A stretch of 64,000 nt of DNA. It comes from Eledone cirrhosa. Taxonomy: Eukaryota. This document shows, one piece after another, positions 12,091 to 48,429 of this stretch. Positions within the stretch are counted from its first letter, which is position 1; each line of letters opens with the position of its first letter. The stretch spans positions 40,052,001-40,116,000 of the forward strand of contig OZ024754.1 of assembly GCA_964016885.1 (NCBI GenBank), given 5' to 3'. The notes under the pieces are model-generated. The model did no database searches, was not told the DNA's origin, and saw nothing but the letters and a program-made list of their open reading frames with translations. The translations under genes were made by a program, and so were the position numbers.

Positions 12091-12092
<2 letters not shown>

Positions 12093-12270
12093 GTTATTCC
12101 GGGTTGAATCGGAGGTAACCACAGTAAGTAAGGTACTCAATACATAGCAGAGTATAAAAGTTTTAATGTAGATGAGATTCTACAGGACTAGAACTGTTTC
12201 ATGAGATTCCTGATGATTTCTAATGAATGAAACAGTTCTAGTCCTGTAGAATCTCATCTACATTAAAACT
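12091..12270. mobile_element. Fold-back PLE-like mini-element, family A, in (TA)n
   Basis: Inverted arms 12159-12202 and 12227-12270; (TA)n on both sides; homologues at 37596-37779 and 47192-47344. Confidence 0.8.
12201..12257 (+). ncRNA. Type I hammerhead ribozyme
   Basis: Stem I atgagattc/gaatctcat (9 bp), CTGATGA 12210-16, stem II ttc-taat-gaa, GAAA 12229-32, stem III acag/ctgt, GUA cleavage after 12248. Confidence 0.85.
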
Positions 12271-13589: not shown

Positions 13590-13654
13590 ATATATATATA
13601 CACACACACACACACACGTATACACAAACACACACATATATATATATATATATA

Positions 13655-13855
13655 TAGGAACGAGTAGGACCCCAACGGCTGAGCTCAAGCCGTTTCGACG
13701 GCTAATTCTGGACTTCTGAGTCCAGAATTAGCCGTCGAAACGGCTTGAGCTCAGCCGTCGGGGTCCTACTTGTTCCTATTACCCACTCTACTACCCTAAG
13801 TATTGAGTACTTTGGTGCGTTATGGTCCACCTGGTTCCTTACCACATTTCCTTCG

Positions 13856-13858
<3 letters not shown>
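13655..13858 (+). mobile_element. Fold-back PLE-like mini-element, family B, in (TA)n
   Basis: About 60-bp arms around a tctg loop (13715-18); 3' half of an HHR: GAAA-cggct tgagctc agccGTC-ggggtcc; 80-bp unique tail. Confidence 0.8.
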
Positions 13859-13898
<40 letters not shown>

Positions 13899-25500: not shown

Positions 25501-25573
25501 TATATTTTATTATGCGCATTTCAAAAACAAATATCATCATGCAATAACATTTGTGTTTTCATCAGATAAAATA
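25501..25573 (-). ncRNA. Type I hammerhead ribozyme (inverted arm)
   Basis: atattttat CTGATGA ... GAAA tgcgcATA ataaaatat. Confidence 0.8.
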
Positions 25574-25761: not shown

Positions 25762-25900
25762 TATGGAACTCCTTTAACCATCTTTTGATCTTATATTATG
25801 CATACTCCAGTCCCACAAACTGTAGAGTGCTTCTTATCCGATATCTGCATTGCTTTATTGTACTACAATAAAACTCACCTCCTATATATATATATATATA

Positions 25901-26092
25901 TAGGAACGAGTAGGACCCCGACGGCTGAGCTCAAGCCGTTTCGACGGCTAATTCTGGACTAATTAGCCGTCGAAACGGCTTGAGCTCAGCCGTTGGGGTC
26001 CTACTCGTTCCTATTACCCACTCTACTACCCTAAGTATTGAGTACTTTGGTGCGTTATGGTCCACCTGGTTCCTTACCACATTTCCTTCATT
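25901..26092 (+). mobile_element. Family B fold-back element
   Basis: Near-identical to 13655-13858; (TA)n flanks. Confidence 0.8.
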
Positions 26093-26106
26093 ATATATAT
26101 ATATAT

Positions 26107-26137
<31 letters not shown>

Positions 26138-26527
26138 ACGTTTAACGTCCGTGTTCCACGCTTGCATGGGTTTGGACGGGGGTAGTCCCACTTGAGGCAA
26201 GAGTGATTGTCTTGCTCGCATAGGACTGTCTGGCAGGTTTTCTACAGTTGGATGCCCTTCCTAACACCAACTACATTTACAGTGTGGGTCTGGGAGGTTT
26301 TTACCGTGTTGCCTACACGGCCACATTACAGCGTGGACTGTGTGTTTTTTTGTTGTGACACCTACACGATCTCATTTGTTTCGGCCTCGATGGCGCGGCA
26401 CCAACATAACTTTACATAGAACGGGGTGGTGTGGATGGGGTGGGGGTGGTGGTGGTGGGACGGGGTGTATTTTGTTAGAGATGCCTGGAGTAGGTTTTAC
26501 TATATATTTAGGTATATATATATATAT

Positions 26528-26722
26528 AACGGAAGAGTTGTGGTAAGGAACCAGATGGACCATAACGCACCAGAGTACTCAATACTTAGGGTAGTAGAGT
26601 GGGTAATAGGAAAAGTTTAACCCCGACGGTAGAGCTCAAGCCGTTTCGACGGCTATTTCTGGGTCCTGAAATAGCCGTCGAAACGGCTTGAGCTCTACCG
26701 TCGGGGTTAAACTTTTTCCAAT
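26528..26722 (-). mobile_element. Family B fold-back element (variant)
   Basis: Same architecture in the opposite orientation; (TA)n flanks. Confidence 0.8.
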
Positions 26723-26815
26723 AAATATATATTATATATATATATATATATTGGCAAAGAATAAAAAAAAACAAGGAGTACAATTACGAACAGTGTTAGT
26801 ATTAAGGTTCACGCT

Positions 26816-37012: not shown

Positions 37013-37595
37013 TTAATGTAGTTGGTAGATATGAAGAGGAAATTAGAAGGAAAAAAAATAGCTTTGAAATTATCTCCTCTGCATCAGTTGTTAGCTGCCA
37101 AGACTGCGCATCCTTTAAAACCTCCACGCTTCCTGAAATTCGCCAACACTACACCCGATATCCCCCCCTCCATACACACGCACACCTGTATATCATGACT
37201 CATACACCGTTTACTTTCCTGACATTTGTACATTATTCTATGTACTATACATGCACCTTTGATGAGTTGTAGTGCACCTGAGCATTGTACACAATTATAT
37301 ATATATATTGGGTATGAAATTTGTAGAAATTTGTTTTTTGTTTCTACAAATTTCATACTTGCGACCCAATATATATATATTATGACCCTTTACGTTCTGA
37401 GTTTAAATCCCGCCGAGGTTAACTTTGCTTTTCATCCTTACGGGGTCGATAAAATAAAGTACCAGTAATACACTGGATAATTGCTGGCCTTGTGCCAAAA
37501 GTAGAAACAATTTTATATATATATATATATACAGATTTAGTTGTCGAAACAGCCAGAGCTCAGCCGTCGGGGGCCTGAATTTTTTTCATATATAT

Positions 37596-37775
37596 GAAAG
37601 CTTCTACAGGACCAGAACTGTTTCATTCGTGAGAAATCATCAGGAAGCTCCTGATGATTTCTCACGAATGAAACAGTTCTAGTCCTGTAGAAGCTTTTCT
37701 ATATTAAATATTTATACTCTGCTATGTATCGAGTACCTTACTTGCTGTGGTTACTCCCTTATTGAACCAGGGATA

Positions 37776-37779
<4 letters not shown>
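37596..37779. mobile_element. Family A fold-back element with two back-to-back hammerheads
   Basis: Minus-strand HHR 37599-37649 and plus-strand HHR 37645-37696; a family B fragment is adjacent at about 37533-37587. Confidence 0.85.
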
Positions 37780-45790: not shown

Positions 45791-47191
45791 TTTTTTTTAT
45801 TTAAAAGCATGCCTCAATAATTATTTATTTACAACAGTTTATAACTTTGCCTATTAATCCGTATGGTGAGCAAATGGTGTCCCACGTGCTGGCCTTCCCC
45901 ACAGCCCCTCGGACAGGATGGAGAAGGCGTTTCCCTGGAGTTGTTACTTGGAAGAGTCTGATCTTGGTGTGGTTGGAAACATAACACACTACACTCACCG
46001 AATTCTTACGAGAGATGATGAAAATGTTCTACCATCTTTCTTGTCTGAGGTCTATAGCAGGAATAAGGTTAAGGGACAAACATAAAAAACAAAGTGGGAG
46101 CCGATTTTATGATTACATTCTATTTACAGGATTAAATTATGGATTAGACACCGGATCACTAACGTTTCAAAAGAAATTCGATCGGTAGAGCGTCGGACAA
46201 CATGCTGTACGGCATAGAGTTATGGCTCTTAACGTTCCGAGTTCAAATCCCACCGATGTCTGCTATGCATTTCATCCTTCCAGGGTCGATAAAAAATTAA
46301 AAAATTAAAAAAATAAAAAATTTAAAAAAAGGTACCAATCATGTAACAGGGATCGATTTAATTGACCTCTACCCTCCCGCCAAATAGCTGACCTTGTACT
46401 AGTTTTAGAGAGGATTATTATAGAGGGGGAGGGGTGGGGGTGGGGCGTCATTCATGATGACCGGATCAAATTAATTGGTGAACCCAAACTTGTTTTGAAG
46501 CAGTAGTCAAGTGAAAAGATGTGAAAAGTGAAAAGGTGATGATGTGGAAAGATCGGAGGGGTGAGGGGTAATTAGGCTATTTCATAATATGACAAATTGT
46601 TTACACATATATTAGATCAGGAAGATGAAGAGAGGCGGGGCGGCGGGGGGGGGGGGGGGAGTAGTTATAGTTGTCACAGTTTGAGAGCATATGTTGAGTA
46701 GTTATAGACAATTAATTGGTAGGAACTTATTGTTGTGCTGCTTCACGCCAGTCCTGATTGTGTTGACCCATAGCACGTATGTAGTGAGCTGTAATAGTGC
46801 TAGAAATAGTAGTAAAAAGAAATTATAATTTAGGGTAAGATGCTTGGCTGTTTGGTTAAGACACTTTGCAACCTTAGGGTCTAGGTCTCTCTAGCCTGCC
46901 TGGTAAAAGGACAAGTCAGTCAATCATATTGGTGGCCTCCCCACAGCCCCGGCGGACACAATGGAGAAGGCGTTTCCTCCAGCTGTACAACTTACACGTG
47001 ACCTACACATCTGTTCTAGTAATGCAAAATAGAGGACCAGGACCAGGTCCTATGGGGTGCCACGCCAAGAGCAGTGGAGGGAGTGGGGGGCATTGAATGG
47101 TACTGACCGCCCCCTCCCCTAATTTTCAGTGGTACACTCTTAGATTTAGAAAATAGGGTGTATATATATATATTATATATATATATATATA

Positions 47192-47344
47192 CACGTTATT
47201 CCGGGTTGAATCGGAGGTAACCACAGTAAGTAAGGTACTCAATACATAGCAGAGTATAACAGTTTTAATATAGATGAGATTCATCTATATTAAAACTCAT
47301 CTATATTAATCTCATCTATATTAAATCTCATCTATATTAAAACT
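47192..47344 (-). mobile_element. Family A element truncated at the HHR cleavage site, with 4 short inverted repeats
   Basis: Matches 12091-12180, then (tcatctatattaa) x4; (TA)n flanks. Confidence 0.85.
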
Positions 47345-47369
47345 ATATATATATATATATATATATATA

Positions 47370-47517
47370 CTAATAATAATAAATTTGAAGACTAAAATCC
47401 AAAGAGGGCTCGATAAGGATAAATATATATCAAATATATAAGAACCGTAGAGTTTCAGAAGATCCCGTTAAGGGTGAAAGCAGCGATTCTTTGCTTAAAC
47501 TTTAATCTGTTATTTTA

Positions 47518-47522
<5 letters not shown>
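47370..47522 (+). mobile_element. PLE 3' remnant: GIY-YIG-like C-terminus followed by a degenerate HHR
   Basis: IINLKTKIQRGLDKDKYISNI* (compare LxTxxPxGLN), then agagttt CAGAAGA tccc-gttaa-gggt GAAA gca...tgCTT aaacttt. Confidence 0.6.
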
Positions 47523-47561
<39 letters not shown>

Positions 47562-47587
47562 TCCATAAAGTCTATATACTGTATATA

Positions 47588-47779
47588 TAGGAAAAGAGTC
47601 AGGACCCCGACGGCAGAGCTCAAGCCGACGGCTATTTCTGGACTGAAATAGCCGTCGAAACGGCTTGAGCTCTGCCGTCGGGGTCCTGTCTATTTTCCTA
47701 TTACCCACTCTACTATTCAAAGTATCGAGTACTCTGGTGCGGTATGGTCCAGCTGGTTCCTTACCACACTTCCTTCGTT
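47588..47779 (+). mobile_element. Family B fold-back element
   Basis: Homology to other family B copies; TA flanks. Confidence 0.8.
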
Positions 47780-48429
47780 ATATATATACATATATATATA
47801 CATATATATATATCGGGTCCATTCATGTTGGCATCTCTTGCACACGGTGTCCATAAAGTCTGTTTACAATTTAAAAAATATACTACAAAGGCAATTGATG
47901 GGACGTCTTAAACAAATTTGTTCTATGTACTCAGTAGTTATCAAAGTGTTGGAAGGTTTCGATAGAAAAGACATGAGTTTATTTCATAGAAACAAAAGCG
48001 GTTTACAATACCACGTGTCTGTGAAATGTTCAAACATTATTTTTCACGTTGATTCCACTAACAGCAACTGGAACACTCGTCGTCGGAGCCGACGGAGGTC
48101 CATAACACACACGCACACTTGTGGTGGCTACAGTTGAGGCCAGTGTACTAGTCTTGAGCCCAGAGTCAAGGCGTAACAATTGCACAATCATCAACCTCGA
48201 CAGTGACAGAAGCCTTTAGATGGAATTGAAAGCTGGAGAGTTTAATTGTATTTATATGGTGAGAGAGAGGGTAGGGGTGAGAGGGGGGGGGGGGGGTCAG
48301 CCCATCCAATTTTTGTTTGTTTGTTGTTTTTGCTAGATGATTTAACAATTGATTGTGGAATTTGAGCAAAATGTTGAATTACGTAGAAGTAATTTGTAGT
48401 AAAATGGCGGGAGTTGGAACAATAGCTGC

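Follow-up and report, generated by a model that had tools for sequence, protein, structure and literature searches.

Anatomy of the locus

The locus at 47161-47369 of the window (the whole 64-kb stretch of DNA that was analysed, G000:C14:40052001-40116000) holds a short insertion with two head-to-head arms, placed between (TA)n tracts and carrying a series of re-copied short units (Table 1). Element positions are given on the sense strand and counted from the predicted hammerhead cut, +1 being the G after GTA and -1 the A before it. Genome-wide counts were made over 3.0 Gb.

Table 1. Coordinates in the window of the focal locus and of two other copies of its family
Feature	Position	Strand
Left (TA)n target tract	47161..47191	
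Tail-bearing pLTR arm, +89 to +1, ending at +1 or up to 2 nt short of it	47194..47282	-
Re-copied unit 1 (+6..+22), TC microhomology with the arm	47281..47297	+
Re-copied unit 2 (+5..+18), CT microhomology	47296..47309	+
Re-copied unit 3 (+2..+19), AA microhomology	47308..47325	+
Unit 4 (+2..+22), second arm without a tail, up to the second fixed end of the family, ATTAAAACT	47324..47344	+
Right (TA)n target tract	47344..47369	
Typical copy of the family; arm with tail to -24, the second arm from -45 with a non-genomic G (12203)	12091..12270	
Predicted hammerhead of the typical copy, predicted cut after 12248	12204-12254	
Copy of a diverged subfamily, same two-armed anatomy and hammerhead core	37583..37776	

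When 47193-47282 was compared with 12091-12180, 97.8% identity was observed over 90 nt, and the match stopped at ...GATGAGATTC (47282), as originally predicted. Position 47282 is the complement of +1, the first base past the predicted GUA cut; the prediction had allowed for up to 2 nt of microhomology there, and exactly TC is shared. The four staggered short units that it described before the (TA)n tract were recovered in a unit-by-unit parse, with successive units sharing exactly 2 nt each (TC, CT, AA, AA). The ends of both arms fall within +1..+4, and +2 is where two of the re-copied units start again. The arm, 89 nt long, has no private substitution; it is matched exactly by 21 of 89 family copies taken in order of position, and hence the copy is young. 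A tandem search for the 13-mer of these units gave 3 loci in 3.0 Gb, with three of the five matches lying at the focal locus, and its reversed control gave none. Four units were found at the focal locus only, and by these counts against the control the array is beyond chance. It may be noted that a different high-copy repeat (47369-47520) follows in the same TA tract; it adjoins TA runs at other loci and has very high read depth.

Family and predicted ribozyme

A 35-mer of the family tail had 4,743 exact matches genome-wide. The copies consist of two head-to-head arms in (TA)n, the inner ends of which vary; the outer ends are fixed, one at +89 (the tail) and the other at +22 or earlier inside a TATA stretch. 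Long copies continue into an intact 713-aa ORF that has YRDD and a motif resembling GIY-YIG; this ORF lies 175 nt after the hammerhead core in 3/3 long loci fetched, hammerhead and tail being just upstream in each. The pLTRs form a partial tandem with an inverted truncated arm and an optional tail, as in EN+ Penelope-like elements (PLEs). Read by eye, the ORF contains IRWRAF, SDKTK, CNCLNKEAC, CDLC, CMH and, at the C terminus, a GIY-YIG, and no CCHH. This set agrees with that given for the Hydra clade in the relevant part of PMC8557442 (RWK-type, DKT, CxCX5C linker, and CxxC and CxH flanking the nuclease E and N). The family is flanked by (TA)n, and about 5.5-6 kb separate the hammerheads, as against less than 3 kb in the Hydra clade.

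In a Pfam search with the ORF, GIY-YIG scored 15.9 bits, under its cut-off of 22.6, and no RT family matched; a PDB sequence search with it gave no match. Its ESM Atlas neighbours (0.95-0.99) have HTH_animal, GIY-YIG and RVT_1 domains, which is a lead. Judged by motifs and anatomy against the published description, the family is placed as a Hydra-clade PLE.

The typical copy carries CTGATGA at 12210, GAAAC, and GTA^GAATCT with +1 at 12249 (caret, predicted cut). The full core, the GUA triplet, a 6-bp stem I and a 4-bp stem III are present, and stem I pairing is kept through base changes in diverged variants. Stem II is weak (3 bp, with U-U at 10.1-11.1), the hammerhead fold (-5.3 kcal/mol) is not the minimum (-5.6), and an Rfam scan of the window with E up to 1 returned no hammerhead. 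By its core, triplet and stems this is a predicted type I ribozyme. The earlier identification of a PLE with a hammerhead is thus borne out by the ORF, the core and the pLTR anatomy.

Metazoan PLE hammerheads cleave poorly in vitro, according to the part of PMC4209133 that deals with them. In Anolis, hammerhead cleavage is dispensable for insertion (PMC11167929), and Craig et al. call the function of PLE hammerheads unclear in the corresponding section of PMC8557442.

Several further elements were seen. A second two-armed family occupies (TA)n tracts of the window at 13649-13878, 25895-26108, 26513-26727 and 47582-47790. More CTGANGA...GAAA cores occur at 25565/25699, 27497, 48579, 49023/49192 and 53411, several in inverted pairs, and probably belong to other PLE families. 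The 3' UTR of one family copy contains another PLE-like element, with an open frame of 969 codons and DKSG and YIGET motifs (L367, 1390-4299, minus strand). The family tail also recurs in each unit of a tandem array whose period is about 1.08 kb (L371, G000:C1:83679629-83689628).

Arm ends at the predicted cut

A peak of 5' truncations at the cut had been proposed as a check on cleavage. No clear one was found: counts were similar when five positions and three hairpin centres were compared. Genome-wide, 11,596 arms read through the cut and at most 92 stop there (at most about 0.8%). Boundary matches, defined by two mismatched bases, numbered 34 at +3, 70 at +1, 46 at -1, 19 at -3 and 52 at -5; a complementary boundary class, searched at +1 only, added 22 at that position. 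Fifty of the 70 matches at +1 begin with AG and are mostly microhomology joins to stem I; the other 20 or so are no more than at neighbouring positions. In the first 30 of the 70, 13 were joins to the 5' strand of stem I, and since these have a 6-nt microhomology with that strand they need no cut. Among 83 tail-bearing arms mismatched after +1, all of which were read, 44 were true ends and 25 of these were stem I joins.

We also ordered copies on C1 by position (the first 100 matches listed, with one duplicate dropped, a tandem array counted once and a subfamily alignment stop removed). Of these 88, one had a tail-bearing arm ending at +5..-5, and 35 had it at -39..-46, including 13 at -44. 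Short hairpins were found centred on the cut (28 loci), upstream (38 loci) and downstream (28 matches). Ends at the cut are rare in the family. With no end peak, and with upstream-centred hairpins as common as cut-centred ones, the end of the focal copy alone is no proof of a cleaved template.

A likely capped transcript start upstream of the cut

The main pile-up of ends lies 44-45 nt upstream of the cut and comprises 4,396 of 11,383 arms (39%), with 2,331 starting at -44 and 2,065 at -45; the other 6,987 matches have the genomic C at -46. Of 30 starts at -44/-45 that were viewed, 4 were substitutions. In raw reads of two other individuals, depth falls six- to seven-fold across -44/-45 and not at the cut, a fall to which subfamily divergence contributes. 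The strand skew of the matches with the genomic C (4,698 vs 2,289) is likely explained by a retrozyme-like tandem array, L537/L538 (G000:C28:30.57 Mb). Its unit of about 77 nt contains the whole hammerhead (-59..+18), and the unit joint is also present in raw reads.

Both stem I and the ribozyme start with position -45. Among 38 distinct upstream sequences, 35 have a TATAWA hexamer 24-37 nt upstream, in 23 cases at exactly -30, and the site reads like an initiator. Seventy-nine of the first 100 listed arms starting at -45 carry a non-genomic G (hand count). In the diverged subfamily the extra G was on 75 of the first 100 boundary arms listed, many of which could have borrowed it from the partner arm; a third subfamily had it in only 14 of 30. 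An extra G at full-length L1 5' junctions marks the copied cap, as described in the portion of PMC11702581 concerned, and the G at -46 likely comes from cap copying as well. Because -44/-45 falls at the first ribozyme base, 30 nt past a conserved TATA box, and usually bears the extra G, it is likely the start of a capped transcript. The end profile thereby also yields a likely promoter of the element. Most short copies, including that at 12091-12270, would then be run-off cDNAs of capped, uncut transcript. For comparison, PMC2377424 places Penelope transcript starts in the upstream pLTR, with a TATA-less promoter in Drosophila virilis.

Two other candidates were considered. Snap-back of stem I as the source of the extra base predicts A or T in 17/17 readable G cases of the diverged subfamily, and was rejected. 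A 3' splice site at ...CCCAG is disfavoured as the source of the -44/-45 ends: no common upstream exon was seen, and the AG is missing in one subfamily. The splice site was considered since in Drosophila virilis an intron end maps to helix I, as described in that part of PMC4209133. At two loci (L098, L420), arms ending at the likely transcript start run directly into (TC)n/(GA)n; these tracts could be due to 2-nt slippage on a capped GAGA end or to a compound microsatellite target.

U6 and 18S rRNA sequences joined at the predicted cut

At one locus (L677, G000:C10:48071158-48074182), 1501-1629 contains a full-length sense U6 (Rfam 1-105, 115 bits) that is fused to +1. Five T are followed directly by +1 with no microhomology, and the junction has the sequence features of RtcB-type U6 chimeras. 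The other arm at this locus carries a re-copied +22..+11 unit. At two more +1 loci, both arms carried GC-rich sequence that was identified as 18S rRNA. A search with 18S alone gave 45 rows, all of which were read. Three loci in them join 18S to the PLE family, L206, L632 and L634 (C11:37.84 Mb, C2:365.37 Mb and C4:288.69 Mb, respectively); five of the arms join at +1, two of them with a 2-nt microhomology and three with none, and a sixth joins at +2 to +5. No 18S join at the PLE transcript start was present in the 45 rows. At the three loci the 18S fragments share a recurrent 3' end, which lies in an early expansion segment. One 18S locus has different 18S variants on its two arms; therefore, two RNA molecules were used.

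The same search showed 18S joined to unassigned sequence at one two-armed locus, and, at two loci (L636/L637, G000:C1:133.55 Mb; L694, C2:143.17 Mb), the same 18S fragment joined to the second two-armed, TA-targeting family mentioned above, at its predicted GUC cut. The putative hammerhead-like core of that family has a long stem II and seems non-canonical. At several other loci, lone 18S fragments end within a few nucleotides of the recurrent 3' end. Other GC-rich foreign sequences at +1 were noted in L667 (1523-1615, minus strand), L212 and L187. The last has a weak 14-nt match to the 5.8S-28S spacer, and Rfam gave no identity for those in L667 and L212.

In all, rRNA or U6 fusions were found at 4 loci in 52 matches at +1, against 0 in 169 control junctions (109 matches at +3, -1, -3 and -5, and 60 at -44/-45); the Fisher p of about 0.002 is qualified by the fact that the complementary boundary class, which yielded the U6 and two 18S loci, was searched at +1 only. 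A hammerhead cut yields a 2',3'-cyclic phosphate and a 5'-OH. As a 5'-OH is present on the hammerhead product but not on a capped end, ligation fits these joins better than template jumping by the RT; also against template jumping, no match to rDNA or U6 was found in 217 transcript-start junctions. Both routes need a cut RNA. The U6 and 18S joins at +1 thus suggest that the predicted ribozyme likely cuts in the germline and that cleaved RNA likely serves as template in the family. The original proposal of a cleaved template is upheld to this extent at family level, and not by any end peak or by the focal end taken alone. RtcB is known to join the cyclic phosphate of U6 to a 5'-OH, making U6/L1 chimeric pseudogenes (Moldovan et al. 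2019, the relevant part of PMC6789731). Chimeras of rRNA and L1 are known as well; the passages concerned mention neither Penelope nor ribozymes (10.1101/2025.02.02.635956).

Re-copied units across the family

Tandem 10-mers from three regions were counted. For the one by the transcript start there were 65 matches; of the 30 viewed, 28 belonged to the family, and every one of these 28 lay at the junction. The mid-ribozyme 10-mer gave 12 matches, 11 in the family and 2 at junctions. The post-cut 10-mer gave 76, mostly unrelated minisatellites, with 16 family loci and 10 at junctions. The contrast of 10 with 2 junctional cases between the post-cut and mid-ribozyme regions is confounded by AT-richness and by nearness to the +22 start. 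There are units that extend across the cut (L278/L279) and units that stop at +11, as on the second arm of the U6 locus; hence, re-copying needs no cut. It is a behaviour of junctions, loosely tied to RNA ends. A count of copies with reiterated ends had been suggested earlier: such ends are rare, and a minor fraction of junctions have them, for the most part those at the transcript start.

Origin of the focal copy

The reading that we favour, with a probability of roughly 0.55, is a head-to-head two-armed insertion for which the template was likely cleaved RNA and the units were likely re-primed on 2-nt microhomologies. The GIY-YIG nuclease would nick both strands in the (TA)n tract, and the RT would prime two cDNAs at internal start sites, +89 and +22. 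Each cDNA would run off the RNA 5' end, mostly at the likely capped start (-45/-44) and in a minority of under 1% at the cut. The cDNA 3' ends would then slip back and re-copy on 2-nt microhomologies before the two cDNAs join. The lack of a clear excess of ends at +1, the short hairpins at all centres and the weak predicted fold speak against this account, and for the focal copy a cleaved template is favoured by a small degree.

The template may instead have been uncleaved, both cDNAs having stopped early or been trimmed and then joined by microhomology, so that the +1 end is a coincidence within a continuum of hairpins. More than 99% of arms read through the cut, per-position end counts near it are similar, 38 hairpin loci are centred upstream, and unprocessed RNA dominates as a substrate in vitro (Frangieh 2024, PMC11167929). 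We give this alternative a sizeable minority of the probability. Against it, RNA with +1 ends does exist, as the U6 and 18S fusions show, both focal arms and two units end at +1..+4, and the two commonest cut-centred junctions, which account for 20 of 28 loci, are as expected from a cDNA ending in TC at +1. A separate issue, compatible with the favoured reading, is whether the units were made by a DNA polymerase that copied the partner cDNA, through theta-type end joining or the DNA-dependent activity of the RT. This stands at nearly even odds. Polymerase theta makes iterative templated insertions; the 2-nt microhomology at every focal junction is predicted by RNA re-priming and DNA re-annealing alike, and snap-back synthesis on cDNA is documented for R2 in the part of PMC11371274 that treats it. 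Against it, several re-copied transcript-start units (L498, L500, L520, L612) each carry the extra G, as from fresh copying of a capped end, although copying a cDNA that already carries the C would give the same result.

Two other accounts are much less probable. A longer palindromic copy could have lost its centre after insertion, its repeats growing by replication slippage. Later slippage does occur (9 of the 11 family mid-ribozyme duplications are internal) and the focal tract is AT-rich, but here it would take a deletion and three events in three registers in an arm that has no private substitution, and multi-unit repeats sit at junctions; we therefore regard it as improbable. The repeats most likely arose at insertion, since the arm is identical to so many family copies and re-copied units cluster at junctions. 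An error of assembly or consensus in a hairpin between TA tracts is least credible of all. Contigs from 4 read runs gave no cover over 47290-47369, with a method that skips repeats, and neither a read nor a contig was seen spanning the units; however, the units are staggered in register and family-exact, and junctions of this type with two or three units are present on other contigs.

Discussion

The focal copy belongs to a known kind of element, of which it represents a rare junction variant, and by itself is of minor importance. What is of interest lies at the level of the family: transcripts likely start, with a cap, at the ribozyme's first base, and chimeras occur at its predicted cut. We put forward tentatively, at somewhat less than even odds, that the genome keeps a fossil record of every 5' end of the element RNA: mostly run-off at the capped start, and rarely germline hammerhead-cut RNA that was ligated to U6 or 18S, or re-copied by the RT as at 47282-47344. 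If true, this would be evidence, taken directly from the genome, that a metazoan PLE hammerhead cleaves in vivo and that a TERT-related RT can synthesize reiteratively. Chimeras fixed at the cut give a simple genomic assay for hammerhead cleavage in any PLE-rich assembly. As over 99% of the copied RNA was uncut, cleavage would be a side path or a means of RNA destruction, not a step of transposition. A literature search of incomplete coverage found no report of PLE cut-site chimeras or of transcript-start run-off.

Telomerase copies a short segment beside its template end again after realignment on a few bases. Re-copying of an end-adjacent segment after realignment on few bases is the likeness here; unlike in telomerase, neither a template boundary nor the register is fixed, and two to four irregular units, differing at both ends, occur at a small share of junctions. 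With the focal 13-mer in tandem at just three loci, the proposed resemblance is reduced to an analogy, even though PLE RTs are sister to TERT according to PMC8557442. Also comparable are the R2 insertions in which cDNA 3' ends prime extra snap-back synthesis before joining (the relevant part of PMC11371274), as proposed here.

The non-genomic G resembles the copied-cap mark of L1, which is described for full-length elements in that portion of PMC11702581, whereas the cap-like G of this family is on internally primed run-off arms of 67 and 134 nt, on both strands. With the U6/LINE-1 chimeras, as far as PMC6789731 describes them, the family shares a full-length sense U6 with a T-run end fused to a retrotransposon RNA fragment. 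The L1 junctions vary, whereas the acceptor here is fixed at the ribozyme cut, and the commoner partner is an 18S fragment with a recurrent 3' end.

With the Hydra clade, as described in the sections of PMC8557442 devoted to it, the family has in common the single ORF, the motif set, the C-terminal GIY-YIG, the pLTR hammerhead, the (TA)n targets, the inverted 5'-truncated arm and the optional tail. It differs in its length, with about 6 kb between hammerheads in its long loci and a microsatellite-rich 3' UTR against less than 3 kb, and in a tail of 67 nt against 30-40; transcript-start run-off and cut-site chimeras, seen here, are absent from those sections. For Poseidon of Anolis carolinensis, two internal RT start sites were observed in vitro, with both strands nicked and extended (PMC11167929), and the two fixed ends of the family would fit start sites of this type. 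Two start sites bounding the tail, AT-rich targets and uncleaved RNA as main template are shared by both. The Poseidon sites lie 111-118 nt into the ORF and those proposed here upstream of the ATG; and while no RNA-seq reads started or ended at the cut of Poseidon (PMC11167929), in this family the cut is marked by genomic chimeras.
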